From Sminthopsis crassicaudata (taxonomy: Eukaryota): a DNA stretch of 64,000 bases. Below the pieces are notes generated by a model. The model did not search any database. It was not told the DNA's origin and saw nothing but the letters and a program-made list of their open reading frames with translations. Positions 33,591 to 64,000 of the stretch are shown piece by piece. The stretch is from positions 5,581,123 to 5,645,122 of the forward strand of contig NC_133620.1 of NCBI RefSeq assembly GCF_048593235.1, in the 5' to 3' direction. Position 1 is the first letter of the stretch; every line of letters begins with the position of its first letter. A program made the translations under genes and the position numbers.

Positions 33591-35308
33591 TCTTTATGAA
33601 TTTGGCAGTGGTCTAGAGAAGGCTTGGAGCACTTCATGGAGTCATGGTTTTAAATATAAAGAGAAATACTGAGAATTACAAAAGAAGCCAATTATATCAA
33701 CATTTTCAACAAGTTGTTGGACCTCAGATTCAGAATCCTTGGTTGAGATGGGTGTGTGGGTTCCTGGATTTCAGTATTGGTTTTGAGAGAGTCCTCTGAT
33801 TTTTGACTGGCGGGAAAAGATCCAAATGAACATTTTTTCATTAGACTCTTTATCTTTTAATCAATGGAGTTGTTGTCATAACTAGACATGGCCACTGCAA
33901 GTGGGAGTTGACTTACCTAGAAGATACCAACTCTCACACAGAGGGCATGACCAAACATAAGGTGAGGGGCACAAGACACTTGTATGGAAGATGAGAAAGC
34001 AATTGGGGGGAGGGACAAGCTGAGTTTCCCCAGTGATACTCATTGAGATGATCATCTTTTGTTGTGGTTTCTTCTATTAGCATGAAGCAAAAAATTTCAT
34101 TTTAAGGTTGGATGTAGCAGGTTATCTAGCCTGTTGGAGCTTTTAGCCCTGTCCCTAACATAATTTATTAAAATTTACTCATTTTTTTATATTTTATTTT
34201 GTAATATTTTTTATTGGGGAATATTCTTGAGACCCTTCCACAAGTTTAACCAAACAGAAGCACTGATTATCCTAGATTCCTCAAAGATCTTGTGACTTCC
34301 AACTTTCAGCTTTTAGTATGTTCTTTCTATAATTACACTGCCTCTTTCTTGGGCTATCTAGCCATCCAGCAGTGATTTGATGACAGTGAGGTGCCCTGAG
34401 GGCTGGGGATCCAACAGCAACATGTGTCCAGAGCCTCTGACACCTCTCTTTCAATAGACTAGGCTTGATTGAAGTGGCAATCTTAGAGTGATAACTCTTA
34501 AGATTAAATTCTGTAATTTAGAAATAGGATATTTTTCATTGAGGGACTTCATGATTAGATTTCTATCCTTTCCATACCTGGAAAGTCTTCCCTTTTTTTA
34601 TTCTTTACCAGTAAAGTGAGATTTTAGCTGGTAAAGAATGTTTGTTTGTTTTTTTAACAAGCTAGTTAAGTTTTCTTTAGGGTTATTAGCAATTACTTGC
34701 CAGTTAGTAACAAATACTAACCCTAACTCTAACCTTAAATGCACACAAAAAAGGCTCTGTCCTGAGGAATTTGTAGTCCTGTTGACTTGAAATTCATGGT
34801 CAAGTTAAAATCAGATTTCTGAATATTTGCTTATGGAAAGACCTCTGATTTTAAAAGTGACAAGTCAAAAGTCATCTCTGTAATGAGAAGTTTAAAATGC
34901 CATTTTTTCCCTTCTTGTTCACTATATCACTGCTCTTTAGGATTGTAAAACATTATCAAAGAACAACCCTAGAAAATTTTGGCCTAGAAAACAGACAAAA
35001 GTGGCACGGTCTTTTAAATTTTTAATTATAAGAAGTAATAAAGAGTCAGCCGTGGAATAGGAAGGCGTAATGTTTACCTCCTGCCCCTGACACATTAACC
35101 ATGGCCAAGTCCCTTAACCTGTCAGTGTTCCCAGGCAATTTGGTCCCTCGAACAGGGGAATCAGATGTGGACCCCTTCTTCTTCCCCTAAGTGAATACAG
35201 TCCTTGTTTCTTTTGAGTAGTTTATAGCTCAAGTGGGTTGAGAACTATGCATCTCTATTTTATGTCATAAGGATGTTGTGTCTCTAACATGTTGCTCATC
35301 TCATCTAG

Positions 35309-35877
35309 GCTTGAAAGGAGGAGCTGGTGGGACTGATGGACATGGAGGTACCTTCCGGTACACCTTTCATGGTGATCCTCATGCCACGTTTGCAGCATTT
35401 TTCGGTGGCGCCAATCCTTTTGAAGTCTTCTTTGGTAGAAGAATGGCTACTACTAGAGATGGTGAAGAAATGGAAGTAGATGGAGATCCTTTTAGTGCTT
35501 TTGGTTTCAGCATGAATGGGTATCCTAGGGAGAGGACCCCAGTGGGTGCAACTCGACCCAGGCAAGACCCCCCAGTTATCCATGAACTTAAAGTATCTCT
35601 TGAAGAAATCTATAATGGTTGTACCAAACGGATGAAGATTTCCCGAAAAAGGCTGAACCCTGATGGGAGAAGTGTTAGAACAGAGGACAAAATTCTCACC
35701 ATTGAAATAAAAAAAGGATGGAAAGAAGGAACAAAAATCACTTTTCCAAGGGAAGGAGATGAAATGCCCAATAGTATTCCAGCGGATATTGTTTTTGTCA
35801 TTAAAGATAAAGCGCATACACAATTTAAGAGGGATGGATCCAATATTATCTATCCTGTCCGAATCAGTTTACGAGAG
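35309..35877 (+). CDS. DNAJB4: DNAJB4 coding exon 2 (G/F region and C-terminal domain I)
   Basis: Acceptor catctag|GC and donor GAG|GTAAGT. The 569 nt keep frame with exon 1: GLKGGAGGTDG...PVRISLRE. Confidence 0.98.
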
Positions 35878-37384
35878 GTAAGTTATAAAACAGGATCTGA
35901 AACATTGACATTTAACCAATTTGTGCCACAAGAATCTAGGAAATGACTGTGGAAAATGCCCTAAGGCAAACCTGCTTTCCCCATCATAACTACCTTTGAG
36001 TATTCCCTAGGATTTGTCAGCATTACTAGCCATCAGTGGGCTGCTGACTTCCTTTCCCAGTTGTGCTGCTTGTGATTAAATATGTCCTGGTTCCCATCTC
36101 CTTTTCTCACAGGTATATTGGGAGAAGAGATGGTAGAGGGCACTGTAGGCATTATTTACTCTGATAAGGAAAGCTTTCAGGGCTTTCAGATTGTTTATCA
36201 TAGCATAGTTTAGTCAGGATTTACAACTTACTGTTTAAAGAAATAATTTTTTATCTGTTTTGTAATTTAAAAATTTCACTTGCAAGCCTTCTTTAAACCT
36301 TCAATCTTGTGTAAGAAGCCATACCAACAATCCTTTGCCAAATCTGTGGTTTTCTTTGTGCGGTCGGGCCTTCCCCTGATGTCGATTGCTGTCATTCTCC
36401 ATGGCTCACTGCTTTGCATTGCTGGCCCATGGCTTGAGTATTCCCAGAGAGATCCTGAGTAAGGGCAGCCTGGGGAAGAGGAGAAGCAGGTGACAGATTT
36501 TAAGGGCCAGTCTAGAACTTGAATGGCCATGTTCCCCGGGGGACTTCAGGGTCTTGGTCTGTGCCCTCTCCTTTTACCCCAACTCTTCTTTTGGTCATAA
36601 ATATCCGGAAAATGTCTTTCATACATTCAGACTGATGAAGAGTCTACCCCTGTGCATCATCCTTTGCCCTCTGGGTCAGCATCATCAGTGCATCTTTTAC
36701 CCAGCTCAGCATTTCCTTCTAGCATGTAAGGAAGAAGCCAGTATTGATAGATTACCTTGCTGGATCCAGCCTTTGTGTCATGGTCTGATAAGAGGTGTGT
36801 CAGAGCTGCCTCCAAGACTAGGTGATTGATAGGAAATTAGGAATTTCCTAGGAATTAGATAGGAAAATGGGAAAACCAATATTCTATTCAAGATTCTAGG
36901 TCCTTAAATGTTGATTTTGAATTTAAGCATTATGTGGATAACAGTAGAAAGGAAAATATGTAGTTTGAAATAGGGATGTCATTCCCTCTAAAGCATCATT
37001 TCCTAAACTGTCCAATGGACCTCCAAAGGGGAGAGGAAATGGGTAAGATGGCTCATAGGACTTTCCTTACATGGAAATGAAACTCTTCCCCCTCCCCCCT
37101 TCAAGGTTTTTCTGTATGTACATGGACCTCAGTTTAATAAAATCATTTTCTGCACTGATCAGGGGTGAGGCTTGATGCTGAAGAACAGGAACAATACAGT
37201 GGTCTCTGGTCTTATTGGGAGTTTGGGGTGAAAATGATGGTGGTTTCTGACAGGTGGTTGGTAGTTATAAGGTTTGCCTTAGTCACAATGGATATTTTGT
37301 AGTTGCCGTTTGCATTGAACTTAAAAAAGATAATGCAACAAGTTTCTACTTCCTGGCAAGTTGACTCTGTTGTTGGTCTTTTAG

Positions 37385-38780: not shown

Positions 38781-40870
38781 TTTATTCTGCATGTCATTGT
38801 TAAAATAACTTTATCAGGCTTCAATTATGCCAAGTAATACAGAATCCTATTGCAATTTAAAAATCATAGTAATGAAATACTGCATTTCACAAATTAGATC
38901 TTCAGTAGTTTATATTTTTGTAAAAATCTAAGGCTCACAAAACAGCAATGAATTAAATTATTCCTACCTAGCATTCCATTTTTCTTCATTCATAACAGCT
39001 TCCTCCGTGGCCATGTTTCTCAGACTGAAGTTAGGAGCCTTCTCAGAGGTCACAGAAACATTTCGTGGAGATGTGGTAGCACAGTACTGTCCCCATTTGC
39101 CGCCTCTTTCTTTGATCCCTCCTTTACCTTCCCTTCTTCCTTTGTAACATCATGATTACCACATTCCAAACATCTGATCCAGTTAATTTCTTTTGTATCA
39201 ATATTATATCTAATTCTTGACATGCCTTTTAAAACTTGTATGATGGTATAGGATATAGGAACTCTTCAAAACAGATAAAATAAAATTTGGGGGGAGGAAG
39301 GAGGAGCTTCATGAAAGAAAAATAAAATTGCTGCTCAATGGTCATTGAAGTTATGTGGACTTTTAAGAGAAAAAAAGTCTCCCATGTCCATTTTTCCTCC
39401 ATGGCTTCAAATCCCAGAATCACAAATTTAGATAGTCAACTTTTACTGATAGTATTTTGACATGATAAAGTTCCTAAAGAAGATGTTTAACACGATTTAT
39501 TTATTAGTGAATGAAGCTATAGGTAAAATAGGATTTCCTCCCCCTGCCCTCCCAGTCAGAAAAGTACATCAGACTCTCCTGTGAATACTAAGGGACCATG
39601 TATACTATCACAGTTGTGAAGAAACTATTTTGTAAAGCTTCAGAAAGTCCTCAAGACAATCCATTTCTCTTGTATAGAACAGGCGAGGTACTGCCACATT
39701 TTCAATTAGGAATGGCCATAGACACTGACTTTTGGATATTATATAGCCTTTTTTGGAGACAAGGAATAGAACTTTTTAGTTTTTTTAATTGTAGCAGAGA
39801 ATTGCCTTAACTGTGGATGAAGGAAATGTAATAAGAAAATGGAACTGTTTGTCTTTAGTAAACTGGTTACAGTTACTTGTATAGATACTTGAAACCAAAG
39901 GATTATATATAATATTTCAAAATTGAGATTCCATAAAATCTAGCAGTAAAAGGCTTATCGGAGAGATATCCATTAAATCTAGTAGTAAAAAGCTCTTTTG
40001 AGATAAAAAAAACTTCAGATATAACACTATGTATGTGTTTTAAATCATGTCATTCTTTATTTGAGAAGCTTAGGTTTTATAGATTTAAATATAATTTTGA
40101 TGGTCATTGCCATTAGCTATAAATGAAAATTACAGTAAAATATCAGTTTCATTGTTGTCTAAATAACTATTTGACCTTATGGCCCATTAATATTTTATTA
40201 TAGAAGTCAATGCATGTTCATTTAAAATGGATTTTGAGATTTTATCAAAAACAATGTGTAAAACTCTGTAGTTCAAGTTGTACTGACTAGAAAATTTCTA
40301 AAATATGTGTTGCAAAACCAAAATGAGCTATTTGCTTAGAATTTGTACTTTTTGTGGGGCTGGGCTCCTAAAAGTCTTTAGTTTAGTTCCCTGAGGCTCA
40401 GTGAGATTAACACAGCATGTTGGTGTCTGAGGCTGGATTTGATCTCCGGTTTTCTTGATTCCAAATCTAGCCTACATCTTTTAAGACTTGACTGATTAAC
40501 AACAAACAAATAGTATAAAAGAATTTTACTTATTAATTTTGTGGCTTTTTAGAAATAACACTATTTGAAGCCATAAAGTTGATAAACTTAAAAGAATGTT
40601 TATTTTATGTAGTACTAACATTTTTTAGAATTCTATAATAATTTTATTCCAAGGAACACAGAGAATGTGTACAGATTTTAAATGAGATAAATCCTAAATT
40701 AAAACTAAAATCAAGAGATTGTTCATGGAACAATAATAAAACTTAATAAAATGAGAGATAACCTGATTTTTCTACCATGAATTTTCAAGGCACTGTTGAA
40801 GCTCTTCTTTTGTAAGGAGATGAGGAAAAAAAGGTCTTACTATAAATTTTGGACTTGGGCATTGTAATCT

Positions 40871-41936
40871 TTAGTGTTCTGTTGTCTCTCAATTGTAATC
40901 CTTCTCTGGTAGGAGGTTTCTGTTAATCCTTTTCTCTGTGAGCAGGTTTCTTGGGAGGCTTCGGGATACTCCAGCCAGAGCGAAGGTAGAATCTTGAATC
41001 CTCTTCTTCCTGAATCCTGGCTCCTTTTATCCTCCCAGAGAATGGGCTTGTGGGTATTGCAAAGGTGTAAACTCCTTTAAAGGTGTAAACTCCTATTATG
41101 TGATTTTCGAGAAAAGTTTGAATCTGCTCCTATAAATGACGCTCTCTGACTCAATTAAAGTGAAAGTAAAATTTAATTATACAATGCACCAAATAGAATG
41201 CTTACAATAACAACTAATACAATAAATGATACATAAAAGACAAAGAATTATGATTAAGATAGCAGAAAAAGAGAGAGAGAGAATGCATCACCAATTGGGA
41301 GGAGCACCAACACTAGATTTCAACCTGCTGGGGAGTCCCTATACAGCCTCTAGGTTCAGAATAGGAGAAAGGGTCCCAGACAGATCATCATCTTCATGGG
41401 TGAAACTCCAAATATGGAATGTTTTACCCATCTTTTATAGGGGTTGGGATGAAGAAGGCTTTGAGCCAAGTAAAGACATCATATAAGATAGTAACGTACC
41501 AACATAGGCTCCAGATGGTTATAGTCAAGTGGTGTTTTGACAAAGGGGCCAGTCCTTATCAATGGCAACTATTCCAAGAAGTGTCGAGTTCCTGGAATCA
41601 CGTATTTGGAGCTAAAACACAGGTGGTACACTCCCATCTTATAGGTTTAAAAAAAAATGGTATGTTGTTATGGGTTAAGGAATGGTCAGGTTCTCATGAA
41701 GAAAATTATATCTTAAATTAAGTGGGTTCGCATGGTTCACGTGGAGAGTCACGTCCTTACAATGATTTGAAATGAACTTACCAATAATACAGAAATTTCT
41801 TATTCAACTCCTTTCAGAAGACTAAAGGTGTAAACTCCTTTTAAAGGTGTGAACTAAAGGTGTCAATTCTGAGCTAGAGAATTGATAAGTACTATGCTAA
41901 ATTAGACAACCTAATTAGCACCTAGTAATCCTAACA
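40871..41936 (-). mobile_element. 3' LTR of the provirus (interrupted; U5 end not recognisable)
   Basis: 40871-41094 and 41807-41936 align with 46800-47136, at roughly 7% mismatch by hand count. It starts TGTTAGGATT on minus at 41936. Confidence 0.9.
41095..41806 (-). mobile_element. ~0.7-kb insertion in the 3' LTR, probable solo LTR of another family
   Basis: Absent from the 5' LTR. Flanked by (A)ACTCCT duplicates at 41088-41094 and 41806-41812. On minus it begins TGAATAAG, with TATAAAA at 41439-41433 and ATTAAA at 41177-41172. Confidence 0.75.
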
Positions 41937-41952
41937 AATCCCCCTTTCTTTT
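41937..41952 (-). other. Polypurine tract
   Basis: The minus strand reads AAAAGAAAGGGGGATT, immediately followed by the TG of the 3' LTR. Confidence 0.9.
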
Positions 41953-42319
41953 GATTTAGAACATAGGATGGTCATGACCTTGAAACAGGTATACATAAAT
42001 CCATCAATATGGGAAATATTACACATTATTACGTAAATTACATAAACATTATAACACATGCTAGAAGTGATGTAACAAATAACATGATCAAATAATCATA
42101 AATTGAGAATTTATACATGTCCATAAGTCTATTGTCCATTAGTTCATGTGCCAGGAATCCAATAATTCCTGCAAGTTTTAAAGTCCTACAATAGTCTCAT
42201 CTTGTGTTAGGAAATCCAATGATTCCAGTCTCCTTATCAGCCATGCTCTTTCAGTGTCAGATGTTTCTTAGATCTTCTCCTTTGTTTTGATGTTTTTCTC
42301 TTTTTCTGTCTCTCTCCAA

Positions 42320-42440
42320 GTGCTTGTTGCCACCCATCTGTTTCCTTCTGTCTGTTAAAATACAAGCAAACCCTGTCTCCCAGGCAGTTAACCTATCTAA
42401 TTTCCTTCTATTTATCACTTTCAAAATCTCTTCTCATCAT
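42320..42440 (-). pseudogene. Retroviral integrase C-terminal remnant
   Basis: Minus-strand frameshifted peptide ...RLTAW / GFACI... resembles the betaretroviral IN C-terminal W.GRG.AC motif. The remainder of pro/pol and env is missing. Confidence 0.65.
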
Positions 42441-42498
42441 CTGGCAATTACATTGGAGCTGTTTGTACTGGACACTTCCCTCTTGGTTTAAAAGACCT

Positions 42499-43600
42499 CT
42501 ATTCTTCCCAAGTGTAATCCATTTCTGCAATCTGATTGCCTTTTGGCTGACTGATCAAGTAATCCCTTTCTTCCATGTGATTACTTTTCAGCTGATAGAT
42601 CACATCAGAGTCCTGACCTTCTAAAGGCTCTTTGGGTGTAACCTTAGCTGCCATCATGCCCCACCTATCTTTTGATTGAATTCTTAGAGCTGGGCTCTGC
42701 CTCTCATTTCCCTGGATCAATCTACATTCCGAGGCCCAGTGGAAGCCCTTGTGACATTTTGGACATGGAGTTTTAGGTCTTCTCTCAGCCTGTCTTCTCA
42801 CTCTATCTCCATATCTACATTGAGCTCTTAGATGTCCAACTTTTCCACATTGAAAACATGGATGAGTTTCCCTAGAAGTCCCTTGCGGGGAAGGACCTTG
42901 TCTTTCCATGTTCATCATAGTCTGGGTATAAAAAGTATTTGTTCCTACTTTAGCACAGCATCTTATGATCTCTAAAGAAGCATTTTTGTCTAGTCCCCAT
43001 ATAAGTCTCTTGCAAGCCTCATTGGCATTCTCCTTAGCCAGATGTCTGGTCATTATTTCTGTAATTGCATTCTCTCCAATAGTTCTTGTGACAGCAGTTT
43101 GCAAACGTCCCACAAAATCCACAAAAGGTTCATAGGGACTTTGTTCTATTTTTGTGAAGGCTTCCCCTTGATCTTTCTGTCCGGGGAGGGAACCCCAAGC
43201 TTTTATTACAGCCTTAGAAATTTGCTCATACACTATGGGATAGTTAATCTGTTCTGAATTCTCTCCATACTGACTTTCACCAGATAATTACTCAAAAGTG
43301 AATTATGTGTTAACTCCCGTTTCCATATTGCATCTGTCTTGAATTCTACATAATTCATGAAGCTCTGAAAGCCACAACAAGTTTTGCCCAGATTCTAAAT
43401 ATGTCCTAGCTATGGATTTCCAATCATTCAGGGTTAGAATTTCATAAGGGACAAATTATCTAGTAACATTTTAACATTAGAGGATGTAGCCCCATAAATA
43501 GTGCAACCTCTTTTCAGATTCTTAATTTTATTCAAATTTAAAGGAGTATATCTTCTCTTTTTTTGACCTAACAAGTCAATCTCTTCAATTATAGGATATG
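42499..43600 (-). pseudogene. gag: ERV gag remnant (capsid and nucleocapsid only)
   Basis: YPIIEE...GCTIYGATSSNVKMLL lies upstream of a break. The open 42499-43233 frame has an MHR-like FTKIEQSPYEPFVDFVGRL and two CCHC knuckles, CFQCGKVGHLRAQC and CPKCHKGFHWASEC. No matrix region is seen. Confidence 0.92.
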
Positions 43601-44134
43601 TAAGTATAAAGCTATAGAACACAACCCCATCATATCAAATTTCCAAGGTTTGTCTAAAAACCACATTTAGAGCCCACTTTTGGTTACTTCCCTCAGAGGG
43701 ATAAATTTTTTCTCTTAAGAGGTATAAATTTATCATTACGTATCACTAGAGATAAGTGATGCTACCATGCTCAGGAAGACAAAAGTCAACCAAGCTAGAA
43801 TTAGCAAGATAATGTACCTAAGGACACATCATATTTGGTTTGAGGATCAGAAGTAACATAAAAGCTTGTTAATATAAAAAAGGGGACTAAGAAAGAGAAA
43901 ATTACTTTAAAAAATGAGGAAAATGAACCACTTTCTTCCTCAAATTTTACCTTCGGTAGGTTTAGTCAATCCAAAAAATAACCACCTAAGGGGATAGGTA
44001 AAATGAACAATTATTCATGTAAATAAAAATGGGGAAGAAAAAAATGTTCCCCTCAGCACCTCCAGTAAGATGGTGGGTAGTGGTTTGAAACTGATTCTAA
44101 GGAGATTACACAAGTGTAACCAGGCCGTCTCAAA

Positions 44135-46690
44135 AAATTCTTTAATGTACATTTATTTCTACAAAAGCAATGTATGATACAGAATTAGAAGTGAACACAT
44201 AAACAAACATTTACCTTAAAATATACAGATTCTTAATATAGAGCATGGGATATTTTAAAAAGATGACAAGGGTGGTTAATCTTTTTTTTTTTTTTACATG
44301 TTTTTTGGAACCTCACATCATTTTGATAAATAACTTTTACAAAATTATGTAAAAAGTACAAGAATGTCTGCTAAACAAAGTCTGCATTTTTTCCAAAAAG
44401 AATTTTACAACATGCAGTTCTTAAGGCAGCATTCCCCTTAAAAGGAAAGGTATCCTTTTACACATCAAGAAATCTTCTGCTGCAAATAGGCTAAGGAAGC
44501 CTGGTTTCTTCCATTAATGCCTTTTGTCTTTCCTGTCTGATTTACGATCTCTTTCACTTCTTGAAGATCTTTTGCCTGACCGACTACTTTCTGATATAGA
44601 CCTTTTTCTCTCAGACTGAGTACTCTTATCCTTTGATCCTTTTGTATCTTTGCTACTATCTTTTGAAGACTTGTAATTGTGACTTCTTTCTAGTCCTGAT
44701 GTATCCCTCCGCTTTCCATCCACACTCCTCCTGCGCTTTCTATCCCTCTTATGTCCCCGACCTCGGCTTCCACTCCTACTCTCACTGCTACTAGTGCTGC
44801 TCCTACTACTGTGTCTGCTGTTGCTTCCGCTAGTACTAGTGCTGGTACTGGAACTACTCCGACTGCTACTGCTGCCACTGCTGGAGCTGCTGCCACTACT
44901 ACTACTAGTTGAACTACTATTTGAAGTGCTACTGCTACTGCTATAACTTCTAGTTTTGTTTCTGGCTCGACCCCTGCTTCTGCTCCTAGTTTTGGTTTTG
45001 GTTTTCCTTTCCGTAGGCATTAACAAGACTGGCTCTATTTGTACCTCAGTAAGTTGGACAGGTTCTATGGCAAACCCTTTCCTCTCAGTTAGATGTTTTG
45101 CTTCCTGCATGACCTGACGTAGTGGCTCTATAAGTGTTAAAGGCAAAGTCTCAGATTGAGGCAACGACTGGGGCTGGAGCTGGAGTGAGGGCAGAGTATG
45201 AGACTGGGACTGGGACTGGGACTGGGGTTGGGGTTGAACCACAAACTCTAGTTGAGACTCAGGTTCTCTTTCTCTTGTTTCTCTTCAGATTCATTTTCAA
45301 TTTCTGGAACATTAGCATTCTCCTTCAGAGGAGAAATAGGTTTATACTCTTTGTTTGGTTGAATTTCACCTTCCAATTCTGGTCCCATTTCTTTGCTATT
45401 CTCATTTTCTGAAGGGTCTACACTTTCAACTTGATTAGTTTCCATTTCCTCTGTTTCTGTATTTACATTTTTGACACTTTCTCCCTGCTCTTTCACATCC
45501 ATAATTTCTTCAGGCTGACTATCCTGTTGTTTCTCTTTTTCCCTAATCTCATTATCCTCCTCCATTTTAGCCTCAGTTTCCTTTTTATACTCCTCCTCCT
45601 GTTCTTTCTCTGCATCACTATGAACTGCACCTACTTCTTTTTCCTCTTCCTCTCCTGCATCCTCTATTTCTACATCATTGTGCTGATTACCCATCTCCTC
45701 CATCTCTTCCTCATGCCGAGCCACCTTACCTTCTTCTTGTTCCACCTTCTGTTCTTCATTATGCACCACCTGAGGTTCTTTTTCCTTCATTGATTGTCTT
45801 CTAGGCTTAGCCTCCATTTTATTTATTTGTTCAGCAAATTCATTGTGTCTACCTTCAAACATAGCATTCATTTTTCTCTGTGACTCTTCTATCAACTTTT
45901 TGTAGCTGGGCACATTCTTCCAGGAATGTAGAACAAATGGGGCTTTGTTTTAGTTCTTATATATTTAATTACCTTAGAATTATGCTCATTCCATTCTTCT
46001 TGCAACTGAGCAAGTTCCTTTTGTTCCAAAAGTCGCAGTTCTGTCTGTTTAGCACGTCTTTCTTCAAAAAGTTCTCTCCTTTCATTTTCAACTTGTTTTC
46101 TTTCTTCTTCTGCTTGCACTTCAAGCTTTTGTTCAATTTCTTGACGCCTCTTTTGCCTTTCCATAGCTACAGTTGATTCCTGCTCAAATTTCTGAAGAGT
46201 ACCATTTACAAATCAAATATACGTTGATTCCTTTGTTTTCCCTTTTCATCCATATTTTGATCCTGAATAAGGTCTTGACGTGTGCGCTCTTTGGAGGTAG
46301 CTACAACTGAAGACTGCAATGCTGGCTTTTTGACATCATCATCCTCTGCATTGCTTTCTTGGTATGATTCTCTTCTTGTCCAACACGCTCCTCCCAGCCT
46401 ACTGACTGCCCCTTCAAGATCTCTCTGTATGGCTTGGGGTCCTCCTCCACTATCTGAGAATCCATGCCTTAGCAATAAACTACCATGACCTCTACCCCCA
46501 CCAGGGCCTGAGAGGGCCAACAATCTAGCTTGGATAGGTCTCACGTCATTAGGATCCCGGCCCGTGAGTTTTCCGATATTCTTGTCTACATTTGTTAAGC
46601 TCTCTTTGGCTTTTTCTAGCTGCTCCTGCAAAGTTCTCACTGGAACCACCATCTTCTCCACCCTCAGCTGGTGCTGAGGCAGCTCTCAAG
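44135..46690 (-). pseudogene. PNN: Intronless pinin retrocopy (CDS 46652-44514, plus short 5'UTR and 3'UTR)
   Basis: Four ORF pieces reconstruct nearly all of pinin, from [18 protein letters not shown] to SERDRKSDRKDKRH*, with no introns. Lesions are a stop at 46208-46206, frameshifts at ~46201, ~45900 and ~45267, and a one-codon loss near 46018. A PNN-like 3'UTR follows, with AATAAA at 44157-44152. Confidence 0.96.
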
Positions 46691-46704
46691 GCAGATCGTC
46701 CTGC

Positions 46705-46723
46705 GTCGCCTGTTTGGGCGCCA
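46705..46723 (-). other. Primer-binding site, tRNA-Lys3 type
   Basis: Minus strand TGGCGCCCAAACAGGCGAC versus canonical Lys3 PBS TGGCGCCCGAACAGGGAC. It lies 3 nt after the LTR-terminal CA. Confidence 0.9.
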
Positions 46724-46726
46724 AAA

Positions 46727-47136
46727 TGTTATGTCAAGTCCAGACTAGTTCCTCTGAAGGGCTCAGAACAAGTCCTTGCCCTCGTGGGGTGCCAAATTGT
46801 AGTGTCCTGTTGTCTTTCGATTGTAATCCTTCTCTGGCAGGAGGTTTTTTTTCTGTTAATTCTTTTCTCTGTGAGCAGGTTTCTTGGGAGGCTTCTGGAG
46901 CCTCCAGCCAGAGCAAAGGTAGAATCTCCAATTCTCTTCTTCCTGAATCCTGGCTCCTTTTATCCTCCTAGAGAATGGGCTTGTGGGTATTCCAAAGGTG
47001 TTAACTCCTCCTTTCAGAAGACTAAAGGTGTAAACTCCTTTTAAAGGTGAGAACTAAAGGTGTCAATTCTGAGCTAGAGAATTGTTAAGTACTATGCTAA
47101 ATTGGACAACGGAGTTAGCACCTAATAATCCTAACA
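46727..47136 (-). mobile_element. 5' LTR (410 bp)
   Basis: TG...CA termini on minus (TGTTAGG...TAACA). TATA-like GATAAAA at 46964-46958. Internal 'aaaggtgtaaactcct' repeats. The PBS is directly downstream. Confidence 0.92.
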
Positions 47137-47139
47137 GTA

Positions 47140-47290
47140 ATACAGTGGCAAAAAGCCAGATTTTGTGTCAGACACTCACTAGCTGTGTATGGCTAGCCTT
47201 TTAGCTAGCCTCAGTTGCCTCAGCTGTAAAATGACCTATTATTTGGGGTTGGTTGTAAGGGAAGAGCTGTGTAAATGAATATTCTGCCTA
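47140..47290 (+). mobile_element. MIR fragment
   Basis: 'cagacactcactagctgtgt...gcctcagttgcctcagctgtaaaatg' matches the MIR core. Confidence 0.7.
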
Positions 47291-60790: not shown

Positions 60791-62589
60791 AGAAAGATCA
60801 GGTTCAAGGGAATGGGAAGGCCCAAGGCATTAAGAAGAGTCAGAGGAAGGTGGAGGACCTCTCCTGGCTATTTAGTCACAAAGTCCAGACTTTCAGGCCA
60901 GGAGCCAGACCTTGCTCTGCCTTTCGCCTGGTGCCTTCCTCCCCTGAGCTGCTGGGAGCACCTTGTTCCTGAGAGGTGCCAGCTTCCCCTCCCCCTCCCC
61001 CCAGGAGTTCTCTGAAGTCTGGCACCTTCTATCTTCCCCAAAGATGACTTTCACTTGTGCCAGCACAAGGTCACTTCCTCCATGACTGAGTCACTTTTCT
61101 GACTCTGAATTTCTTCCTCCTTATGAATAAACCGAGAAATCTTGGCCAAATCACCTCCCCTTTCACAATCCAGGTGAAAGTCATCCATAAAATGGAGGTA
61201 ACCCTCGTTCTGCCTGCCCTCCTCAGTCAGCCACTCTGGGAGTAAAATGGGCCACAAACCGGAACTGGGCAGTCCTTCCCTTTCCTTCCTCTTGCCCTTT
61301 TCCTCCCTGGGTCCGCATCGAATATCATACCCTTACCTACAGATGCTCTTTAAAAAAAGCGTTCCCCCCCCCCTTTTGTACCTCTGCGCCCTCCCCAGAC
61401 ATCTTAGGGTTACCTGACTAGATTTCTTTCTTAAGGGCGGGGCCTTCACCAGAACCTCTGATTCTTATTGGTCACCAGTACCCCCTTGGCTTATGGTTTA
61501 GGTAGCAGTCATTTTGACTTGGGCCAGAAACCCTTCCCCTCCCAGAGTCATTTATTTATTCAGACTTTTGGGGGGAAGAGATGAGAGAGGAGATTCTTTG
61601 CCTCCGCTTCCCCCCCCCCCCCTTAATCACTGAGTGGCTGTTGCCTCAGTCAAATTGAGACTTGGAAGAGCTGAGCTAAAAAGCCCCCACCGCATCCAGG
61701 GCCATCTGCGGCCGCCCCGTCTCTGTGTGGCCCCCGGCCCCGATGGCTCTGGAGGGGAAAGTGAGGCAGGTGATCCGCCCAGCCCTCCCTCGCTCAGATC
61801 ACCTGGCGTCTCGGCTTCACGTCCCTGAAGTCCGGGTCACGCTTATTAAAGGGATGAAAGGATCAGACCCAAGCCGGGGAGGCCCCGGGAGCCCCCTCCT
61901 CAGCCACAGAGACGCCCCAATGGTGGGGCCTGGAGGGGCGCGCGCTAGCGGGGGTGGGGAACGGGGGCTGGGGACCCGTGGCTCCGTGGCCCCGAGCAGC
62001 CGCGGCCCCAAGCTCGGGGTCTTAGAGCCGGAGTGCTCGAGGGCAGCGGCGGCGCAGGGACTTCAGATTTCCGAGATTCCCGTTCCGATGCAGCAAAGCT
62101 CAGGGTCCGAGGGCGAACGGCCCCTCCCGCAGCACTTGGAAGCAGGCAGGTCCCTCTGGGCTCGGCCCGGAGGCACCGAAGCTATTCCTAGGATGTGACG
62201 GGGTCCGTGCCATTGAGGGGTCTGTTGAAATCGCGGAGGTTTCTCTTGAAGAGAAGGCTGTGGCGGCGGCTCGCCCTAGCCTCGCGCCTTTCCAGGGTAG
62301 CCTGTTATGTGCAACAGTGAATGAGGGGGCTCTTTACCCAGAGGCCAGTGGAGATTGAGGGGTCCCCAGGGGTCGCCTCAGAATGGGGCGTTCGCTTTTA
62401 CTGACGAGTTCTTTTTTTTGGGGGGGCTCAGGCTCTTTCCCACTTGCCATCCCTTCTCTGCGAAAACGCAGGCTCAGGAGGGTCAAGACCCCCGACCCAC
62501 AGCAAGTGTCAGGCCCGGGAACCCTCTTGATTTGCAGGGAGGCCCCCAAGCCCTGTCGGCGCGTCACCATCCTTCTTCGGGAGCCCTCA

Positions 62590-62910
62590 GACTCCGCTGC
62601 CCCAGGCGGCCGGCTCAGCTTGGGGTTCCCCGGTCCCCCAGGTTCTACGCCGTCGGCTTGCTCCCCGTCCCCCCCCCCCGCTGCCCCAGGCGGCCGGCTC
62701 AGCTTGGGGTCCCCCGGTCCCCCAGGTTCCACGCCGTCGGCTTGCTCCCCGCCCCCCGACTCCCCCAGGCGGCCGGCTCATCTTGGGGTCCCCCGGCCCC
62801 CCAGGCTCCACGCCGTCGGCTTGCTCCCCGCCCCCCCTCCGCTGCCCCAAGCGGCCGGCTCAGCTTGGGGTCCCCCGGTCCCCCAGGCTCCACGCCGTCG
62901 GCTTGCTCCC
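62590..62910. repeat. GC-rich minisatellite, 4 units of ~79-84 bp
   Basis: The core 'ccccaggcggccggctcagcttggggtcccccggtcccccaggttccacgccgtcggcttgctcccc' recurs at 62600, 62684, 62763 and 62845. Confidence 0.97.
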
Positions 62911-63140
62911 TGACTCCGCTCGGGCTGCGTCCGGATACTTGGCCAGTGTCGGAGGGGGGAGGCGGAGGCTGCCCGCCTTCCACCCGCGGCGCACCCAGCC
63001 CGGCCTGCCCCGCCCTCCCTCGGGGCAAAGTCCCGGGTCCGGCTCTCCCGGGCGCTCGCTGCCGTGGGTTCGGGGGTACCGGACCGGCCGCCCGCGCCGC
63101 CTCCCGCCCGAAGCCCCGTGGGCCCCTCCGCGCCGCCACG

Positions 63141-63392
63141 ATGCCGCTGGGACTGCGGGGCAAGAAGAAAGGCGCGCCCAAGGACCAGTGCGAGCTGGTG
63201 AGGGCCGAGCCGAGGGCCCCGCGCGCCGCGCAACCCGAGCCCCCGGAGCCCCCCGAGCGGCCGCCCAAGCCCTCGCTCGTGTTCCAGGCGCAGCTGGCGC
63301 ACGGCGGCGCCGCGGCCGGGGTGGAGGGCTTCGCCAGCATCCACGAGCTGTACGCCAAGATCGCCCAGGCCTTCGGCATCCCGCCCTCCGAG
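63141..63392 (+). CDS. GIPC2: PDZ domain-containing protein GIPC2, coding exon 1 (84 codons)
   Basis: GCCACGATG Kozak context. MPLGLRGKKK...LVFQAQLAHG...VEGFASIHELYAKIAQAFGIPPSE matches GIPC2 exon 1. Phase-0 donor GAG|GTAAGA at 63393. Synteny downstream of DNAJB4 fits. Confidence 0.95.
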
Positions 63393-64000
63393 GTAAGAGC
63401 GCCGGGGACGCAGGGGCCGGAGCCCCGACGCCTCATTTCCCACAGGAGGAAAGTGAGGCTCCCAGGGACCCACTGCGGGGCTCCGCCCCAGGCTCTGTCC
63501 CCGCTTCAAATCCCTCTTTTGAAGTTTCCCACCAGTTTGTCCGTGGGCAAATCATGTCTTCCGTGCCTCAGTTTCCTTATCTGCCAATGAAAGCCTCTGA
63601 CTGGGAAGCCTCGGGTGGCAGGGGGAGGAGGGAGGGAGGGCAGCGGAGCCCAGAGTCCGCGCGGGACGGACTTGCCTGGGCGGACAGGTTCCCCTCCCTT
63701 ATCCCAGAAGCGCATCATCGGGCCGCTGGCGGTACCTCGGGATTATCCGGACTAAAGCGGCTCTCCTCCCGACCCCCTCCTCCCCCACGAAGGTCTCGGG
63801 CCCTTCCCCATGGCCGCTTTTGCGTGTGGCTCTGACCGTTGCAGAAATGCAAACGTCCCCTTAGTGCAGAGGGAGAGCCGACGGTTTGGTGACCCCGGGG
63901 AAGTGCCTGGGACCACCGAGCTAGAATAATGCACTAAAGGAAGGCCAGGGGGTAGGGGAGGCAGGGAGGCCTGGGGAGGAGGGGAGGCCTGGAGAGGCAG

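Follow-up and report, generated by a model that had tools for sequence, protein, structure and literature searches.

A defective endogenous retrovirus (ERV) in the genome of Sminthopsis crassicaudata carries the spliced messenger RNA (mRNA) of the host gene PNN (pinin) in place of its own leader and matrix. The provirus lies on the minus strand at 47136-40870 of a stretch of 64,000 nucleotides (C4:5581123-5645122, hereafter the window), and the genome searched was the 3.24-Gb assembly of eight contigs to which the window belongs. The same 5' junction between virus and PNN recurs in a second provirus, and the mRNA of another host gene, BCAS2, is joined to the same viral primer binding site in five others. 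We are highly confident that the mRNA was captured by the viral enzyme and that the chimera was later re-copied. The specific route that we favour, a mis-annealed second-strand transfer at the primer site, we put at about 0.78.

Structure of the provirus

The order and strand of the parts are those given by a first-pass annotation of the window. The features of the element are listed here in its own 5' to 3' direction.

47137..47142, no strand: 5' target-site repeat, equal to 40864-40869 at 5/6 letters
46798..47136, minus: 5' long terminal repeat (LTR), short form, the portion that recurs at the 3' end; differs from the 3' LTR at 22 of 332 aligned sites
46778..46794, minus: primer binding site 1, tRNA-Lys(CUU), decayed; matches tRNA-Lys(CTT) gene 3' ends
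46727..46777, minus: spacer between the primer sites; the terminal part of the long LTR in other family members
46705..46723, minus: primer binding site 2, tRNA-Lys(UUU), spanning the virus-PNN junction 46709/46708; matches a tRNA-Lys(TTT) gene
46653..46708, minus: PNN 5' untranslated region (UTR) without the first 21-22 nt of the mRNA, whose start is taken from a LINE-1 (L1)-type retrocopy at C2:494.48 Mb
44514..46652, minus: spliced PNN coding sequence (CDS), all 9 exons, three frameshifts; ATG at 46652
43611..44513, minus: PNN 3'UTR, reading past the proximal AATAAA (44157-44152) and stopping ~175 nt short of the distal AATAAA; no poly(A)
42499..43610, minus: gag, broken, beginning just upstream of capsid and including the zinc knuckles; overlaps PNN by 1 nt at the junction
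42230..42498, minus: integrase C-terminal stub, by similarity to relatives
41938..41952, minus: polypurine tract, read from the sequence; in the same place in native copies
40870..41936, minus: 3' LTR, short form, split by a nested insertion; by LTR comparison
41094..41806, minus: nested insertion of 713 nt, later in origin, between copies of a 5-nt repeat; a probable solo LTR from a different family
40864..40869, no strand: 3' target-site repeat, paired with 47137-47142

A single target repeat brackets both LTRs, which are 6.6% apart, and this speaks against an origin of the two LTRs in different insertions. The LTR pair of the first-pass annotation is real, but the repeated portion of the 5' LTR ends at 46798, and 46727 is the longer end used by other family members. 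The lysine site at 46723-46705 does match the tRNA-Lys(TTT) gene, but the further tRNA-Lys(CTT) site at 46794-46778 had been overlooked, as had the insertion that splits the 3' LTR. Gag begins only around capsid, as had been noted; it restarts at 43610, about four codons ahead of the capsid start. The integrase stub had been named correctly on similarity, since it aligns at 77% identity to the pol 3' end of a relative, and the stub of a relative matches IN_DBD_C (E 6.6e-15), but the stub in the window has no Pfam match of its own. In length, the nested insertion (41806-41094) is near the 711-nt devil ERV1 type 2 of PMC4408412.

In the class II tests for Gag_p24 and beta-type zinc knuckle families, the window matches PF19317 above the cut-off and PF00607 and PF14787 just below it; PF02337 (Gag_p10) is matched in a native copy of the family. 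A lysine tRNA primer and a 6-nt target repeat are marks of class II, and both occur in the family. By these characters the carrier appears to be a class II-like (betaretrovirus-like) ERV.

The captured PNN mRNA

The parent PNN gene (C2:348.63 Mb) has nine exons, eight introns and a frame of 716 amino acids. The captured sequence is 3.1 kb long (46708-43611), matches 9/9 parent exons and retains 0/8 introns, and is thus an intronless copy of a spliced mRNA. It differs from the parent at 127 of 3070 sites (4.1%) and contains the Pfam domains Pinin_SDK_N (E 2.6e-59) and Pinin_SDK_memA (E 2.7e-22). The full spliced CDS that had been claimed is there in all its exons, but its frame, full in length, is broken by frameshifts at mRNA positions 528, 835 and 1464. 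About 0.5 kb behind the PNN 3'UTR had been left unassigned. This segment aligns to the parent 3'UTR (87%, with gaps) and is distal PNN 3'UTR, so the complementary DNA (cDNA) ends at 43611 and not at the first AATAAA; a native viral leader at 44135-43600 is likewise ruled out. An old truncated PNN retrocopy elsewhere ends at the distal AATAAA with an A run, which shows that a polyadenylated PNN isoform with the long 3'UTR exists.

Replacement of the viral leader and matrix

The replaced segment could be mapped on native elements. At 25 native loci the equivalents of the two junctions lie 566-959 nt apart (median 687), and all of this is gone in the window, including the part that encodes matrix in a native copy (Gag_p10, PF02337, E 5e-9). 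The host cDNA replaces the viral segment and is not inserted into it, which bears out the earlier remark that leader and matrix are missing where the cDNA sits. The 3' junction (43611/43610) lies 530 nt beyond the proximal AATAAA and ~175 nt before the distal one, and position 526 of the query used there ends the parent match and begins nearly all of the 37 viral matches.

L1-made processed pseudogenes usually have poly(A) at a polyadenylation site and a target repeat around an intact target. The PNN copy in the window has neither: no poly(A) run and no target repeat was found at either end of the cDNA, in agreement with the first-pass annotation on the poly(A). The hexamer TTGAGA, thought to be shared by chance, is rejected as a target repeat and is irrelevant, both occurrences belonging to native PNN sequence. 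Both hallmarks are present in the L1-type PNN retrocopy at C2:494.48 Mb, with poly(A) at the proximal site and a target repeat of 15 nt; it begins, with an additional 5' G, 21-22 nt upstream of the viral 5' junction. This retrocopy (L053:5793-8217) is also without exon 8, a fossil of an exon-skipped isoform.

Tandem primer sites and the 5' junction

The family has two primer sites in tandem, Lys(CUU) followed by Lys(UUU) about 70 nt away, both of which define LTR ends. They match the 3' ends of the tRNA-Lys(CTT) and tRNA-Lys(TTT) genes of this genome, and ARAGORN called a lysine gene at the matched place in 2/6 and 2/4 of the loci examined. Three of the native full elements that could be classified have a short 3' LTR and three a long one. 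Both PNN chimeras have the short form, and a short 3' LTR implies priming at site 1. The spacer in the window contains a 5-nt insertion which, on comparison with native copies, is otherwise found only in the second PNN chimera.

In native copies primer site 2 ends in GGGAC and the leader follows, and the PNN 5'UTR contains GCGAC near its start. In the chimera the viral sequence can be followed through primer site 2 as far as the terminal GAC, which is preceded by one inserted host C, and PNN follows. The check for microhomology that had been suggested gives four of five shared letters at this junction, but a single letter at the 3' junction.

On its right side the LTR can stop at any of at least three points, namely ahead of site 1, ahead of site 2 or directly behind site 2, and every one of these ends was found with target repeats (window 46794-46705; loci L073-L100, L132-L137 and L157-L167). 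The spacer contains a stretch complementary to the 5' end of tRNA-Lys(CUU). Some primer-site copies extend into the tRNA body (L133:1133-1155, L159, L213, L229:780-855), and at L229 a nearly whole tRNA-Lys copy stands between a truncated LTR and the leader.

A second PNN provirus

With 10/10 candidates scored, two PNN chimeras were found genome-wide. The second, at C4:199.71 Mb, is the locus with an identical junction and different flanks for which the first-pass annotation had recommended a search. It has its own 6-nt target repeat, its flanks match those of the window in simple repeats only, and the two proviruses are 7.6% diverged. It contains PNN to mRNA position 1069, 55 nt of gag and then the viral 3' end. 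Its 5' junction is identical with that in the window, but its 3' junction differs. The idea of a family that amplified PNN is upheld by this second locus, but PNN reached only two copies and the amplified chimera is that of BCAS2, with five loci of the same viral lineage. The low copy number of the PNN chimera is plausibly due to the loss of the leader and to the internal poly(A) signal of PNN.

Since the second provirus has the same 5' junction in unrelated flanks, with another LTR subtype and another 3' junction, the PNN chimera was re-copied. The LTRs of the two chimeras differ by indels that are fixed in both LTRs of each, and both types occur among native copies. The 3' region of the window has 15/343 differences to a native copy, against 21/335 to the second chimera. 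The two therefore share their 5' half, their 3' halves apparently coming from different helpers. One non-CpG substitution, at mRNA position 168, is common to these two PNN copies only. No frameshift is common to them, so the circulating open reading frame (ORF) was probably intact over the shared 1 kb.

The divergence of the LTRs was compared with that of the retrocopies, as had been proposed. LTR differences (22/332 in the window, 27/376 in the second provirus) agree with the private changes in PNN (35/1038 and 40/1038), so that, within error, one age holds for the capture and for both integrations. At an assumed rate of 1-3 changes per site per billion years this age is roughly 11-35 million years.

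Coding state of the PNN copies

In both chimeras the PNN ATG is the first ATG after a TATA-like box of the LTR. Private changes include 21/69 synonymous ones where 15.4 are expected (P 0.07), and in the four PNN copies tested private changes fit neutrality (P 0.07, 0.83, 0.19 and 0.09). Selection on the copies was rejected, raw pN/pS ratios (nonsynonymous to synonymous) of 0.3-0.7 not being significant when the mutation spectrum is kept (P 0.07-0.83). To judge from these substitutions, the PNN copies are today neutrally decaying pseudogenes.

Of the words of the 3' junction stretch, a fraction of 0.46-0.79 is present in DNA sequencing runs of two studies, one of which may underlie the assembly, and 0.19 or less in RNA-like runs; these values are uninformative on junction support, expression and other species. 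Parent PNN exon 9 finds its two best matches, among the best 7,994 candidates by common words, in 'pinin-like' proteins of the Tasmanian devil, with identities of 89% and 91% over the aligned part. The six large chromosomes and one small one of the assembly agree with a dasyurid karyotype. Both entries are named 'LOW QUALITY PROTEIN: pinin-like' and are probably retrocopies. They were considered as orthologues of the PNN chimeras, but the common changes are at CpG sites or are probably ancestral states, and therefore no orthology was assigned.

BCAS2 captures at the same primer site

Screening the genome for the long LTR end followed by primer site 2 returned 53 loci, which were sorted by eye. 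Native leader follows at 41 of them and not at the remaining 12. Of these 12, one is a host-mRNA capture; in one, which has a long 3' LTR, a deletion starts at the primer site and extends into pol; three join the site to viral sequence in inverted orientation; one reads through into a tRNA and is closed by a target repeat; five resemble solo LTRs; and there is one other. Two loci that resembled additional captures, L228 and L229, are native elements, and L166 is a solo LTR next to another element.

The captured mRNA is that of BCAS2 (PF05700, E 1.5e-34), whose parent gene has seven exons (C4:433.36 Mb) and at least nine processed copies (best 40 of 48 candidates). The BCAS2 proviruses behind the Lys(UUU) site are:

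L163 (C4:20.31 Mb)
L218
L219
L220
L221

All five have one 5' junction, at which the 5'UTR, reduced to its final 6 nt, follows a complete primer site 2; the parent sequence at this point is GAGAC. Their flanks are unrelated and they share one substitution private to the five. Their 3' junctions are of three kinds, one common to three copies and entering the reverse transcriptase, and another overlapping by 9 nt; in BCAS2, too, the mRNA breaks off inside its 3'UTR. GAC occurs only 32 times in the 3133 nt of captured PNN mRNA, so its presence at the primer-site end in both captures is unlikely by chance, but two events are few.

Older captures and a control gene

A third LTR-linked PNN copy (L055:4720-6655, C6:188.26 Mb) stands directly after an LTR of a related subfamily, the primer site having disappeared, and at its other end overlaps part of an LTR from another subfamily by 10 nt. 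The copy has no clear target repeat and lies in the leader of an oppositely oriented ERV. Three BCAS2 copies follow the same LTR type and end in a short A run and the last ~10 letters of an LTR; a fourth has lost its 5' part and has the same 3' ending. The older BCAS2 copies, with the order LTR, whole mRNA, short A run and last ~10 letters of an LTR, are:

L222
L223
L224
L225

This structure looks like the result of a very short minus-strand strong-stop DNA priming on the poly(A) tail of the mRNA, in one event or several.

Altogether 3/5 PNN copies are LTR-linked, as are 8/9 BCAS2 copies, or 9/9 if a truncated one is included (best 40 of 48 candidates). As a control RPL21 was chosen blind. Its 35/35 scored candidates gave 12 matches, one of them the parent gene, and 0/11 retrocopies adjoin such an LTR, which refutes LTR linkage as a rule for retrocopies in this genome; the control is one gene and not a census. 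PNN and BCAS2 were picked for their LTR linkage and their copies lack independence; unselected evidence is therefore limited to the second capture of each gene.

A model of capture and its alternatives

Plus-strand strong-stop DNA ends with an 18-nt copy of the primer site. In the route that we favour, a PNN mRNA with the long 3'UTR would have been co-packaged with viral RNA. Minus-strand synthesis would have left gag for the PNN 3'UTR, at a point of almost no homology, and continued nearly to the cap. Plus-strand strong-stop DNA, with the copy of the Lys(UUU) site ending in GGGAC at its 3' end, would then have annealed to the PNN cDNA at GCGAC rather than to the viral primer site, and this would explain the junction letter for letter, the inserted C included. 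Errors at this transfer step have reportedly been seen in the laboratory, although a literature search for such a report returned none. Transcripts of the chimera, started in its LTR, would have been re-copied from a primer at the upstream Lys(CUU) site, as suggested by the short 3' LTR of both surviving copies, and the chimera would have spread by recombination with different helpers.

Several observations weigh against this route. The primary product, a PNN chimera with a long 3' LTR, was not found among the PNN candidates scored. The short 3' LTRs are weakly consistent with rescue by site 1, an argument resting on two copies, since short 3' LTRs also occur in 3/6 native elements and in a BCAS2 copy with an intact Lys3 site. 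The model needs the 21-22 nt of unpaired cDNA end to have been absent or trimmed. The overlap at the 3' junction is 1 nt, against a reported median of 6 nt for LTR-mediated retrocopies. Only one non-CpG site supports the two PNN copies as sisters, so their sequence barely resolves them; and the five solo-LTR-like loci of the screen, whose end includes the primer site, are silent on capture.

Both junctions could instead be minus-strand template switches, from virus to mRNA and back to virus, in which case the window could hold the primary product and site 2 would have no special part. This is the published model of LTR-mediated retroposition (PMC5131818); it accommodates replacement and re-copying equally well and explains the short 3' LTR without an extra round. 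Under this model there would be no reason for two unrelated mRNAs to be joined, each time with a shared GAC, just where an 18-nt site ends in a leader of ~700 nt, or for a deletion and inversions to begin at that same primer-site end, and we think it doubtful. Much less probable is classical transduction, the textbook route of oncogene capture (PMC4997597), in which a provirus at the PNN gene would have been fused by a DNA deletion from its primer site to exon 1, the spliced read-through RNA then recombining with helpers at various 3' points. One 5' junction with several 3' junctions (two for PNN, three for BCAS2) is what such a history yields, but no LTR lies near the present PNN gene, and the same unlikely deletion endpoint would be needed at two genes, each time 6-56 nt before the ATG and at GAC.

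The remaining explanations are highly improbable. An L1-made PNN retrocopy could have entered an existing provirus, deleted its target and been re-copied later; L1 insertions can delete target DNA, and L1-type PNN retrocopies are present in this genome. The position of the 3' end inside the 3'UTR between two poly(A) sites, with no A run or target repeat, argues against this origin, as do the equal ages of LTRs and cDNA and the BCAS2 3' junction, which likewise lies inside a 3'UTR. Nor do we give any real weight to an assembly artefact, or to the second copy being a DNA-level duplication of the first. The junctions are known from the assembly alone, but the 5' junction recurs at a 7.6%-diverged locus with unrelated flanks, its own target repeat and another LTR subtype, and the window PNN is 4.1% off its parent gene.

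Surroundings of the provirus

The element sits between two genes identified by Pfam domains, which we take to be DNAJB4-like and GIPC-like.

35242-35946, plus: DNAJB4-like exon, DnaJ_C
62325-63590, plus: GIPC-like first exon, with the gene start, GIPC1_GH1

Four GC-rich tandem copies of 80-87 nt each lie at 62586-62917, upstream of the GIPC-like start. The segment 3440-4033 (minus strand), which has no Pfam match, we take to be a FUBP1-like first exon.

Comparison with known systems

The window provirus has the features of an LTR-mediated retrocopy, namely an intronless mRNA, internal replacement, matching LTRs within one target repeat, and further copying. Host-gene capture is a rare observation in mammalian ERVs: three human and eight mouse cases of such retrocopies, often of partial mRNAs, have been described (PMC5131818). 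These cases, with the HERV-K capture of FAM8A1 cited there, likewise have an intronless mRNA within the element, retain both LTRs, are free of L1 hallmarks and were re-copied, and they share a short sequence at a junction; the 1-nt overlap at the 3' junction of the window provirus is weak by comparison. Unlike them, the present captures include whole CDSs joined at the primer-site end in two genes of a family with tandem primer sites; the terms 'PBS' and 'primer binding' are absent from that main text.

In crocodilians, CrocERV29 (KIT-ligand) has nine copies and CrocERV31 (nectin3) six (PMC4299795). There, as here with five BCAS2 and two PNN copies, a captured host mRNA gave a small family, but the crocodilian inserts lie between pol and env or replace env and are under purifying selection, whereas here the leader and the start of gag are replaced and PNN decays neutrally. 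Acutely transforming retroviruses, and experimental captures of unlinked host RNA, resemble the present elements in their defective, helper-dependent genomes, in a host CDS under the LTR and in recombination of co-packaged RNAs (PMC4997597). Those described here differ in being germline, without env, without a gag fusion and without any sign of selection or disease. An intact captured ORF under selection, a feature of the v-onc type, is not seen, as PNN has three frameshifts and neutral changes.

The carrier may be MEBrv 3, to which it can be likened by description only: MEBrv 3 is class II, env-less and very abundant in dasyurid genomes (PMC11334065). The pol-bearing relatives of the present element number 10,348 first-look candidates, with ~350 nt from integrase to the polypurine tract. 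'PBS' and 'tRNA' are absent from the main text of the MEBrv 3 paper, and the parts of it consulted contain no gene capture (PMC11334065). Gypsy also has two tRNA-Lys binding sites in one element, but there they serve one tRNA, stand at the two far ends of its genome, and only one of them is needed (PMC1635307), whereas the present sites are ~70 nt apart, use two tRNAs and both define LTR ends.

Capture of PNN or BCAS2, gene capture by marsupial ERVs and such tandem 5' primer sites were the subject of none of the papers returned by a literature search, which covered top matches and few subscription papers. PNN, pinin, LTR and ERV are absent from the main text of a marsupial cancer-genomics paper (PMC12866920). 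Gene capture by ERVs is known already; neither the primer-site rule nor repeated captures of one and the same pair of genes came up in these searches.

Implications

A further possibility, which we consider unlikely, is that the lineage was a selective germline gene-capture machine. The tandem sites would allow loss of the downstream site and replication from the upstream one, a few host mRNAs would be packaged preferentially, and full-length splicing factors would have been made in the germline from the circulating chimeras, which may have benefited the element; PNN and BCAS2 are both splicing-associated genes. This reading is suggested by the capture of each gene twice, by two related LTR subfamilies, beside 0/11 for RPL21, and the expression of full-length proteins by the host ATG standing first behind the LTR with no disabling mutation common to the copies.

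The primer-site junction likely marks a recurring slip of reverse transcription, through which members of this virus family could spread copies of host genes in the germline. One lineage in one genome provides at least four capture types and seven proviruses with one junction rule. Such copies are annotated as 'pinin-like' genes in related genomes, which calls for caution with those names. The position of the junction relative to the primer site can be counted genome-wide, so that the step of reverse transcription at which host RNA is captured becomes countable, and the selective packaging of host mRNAs becomes testable from fossils.

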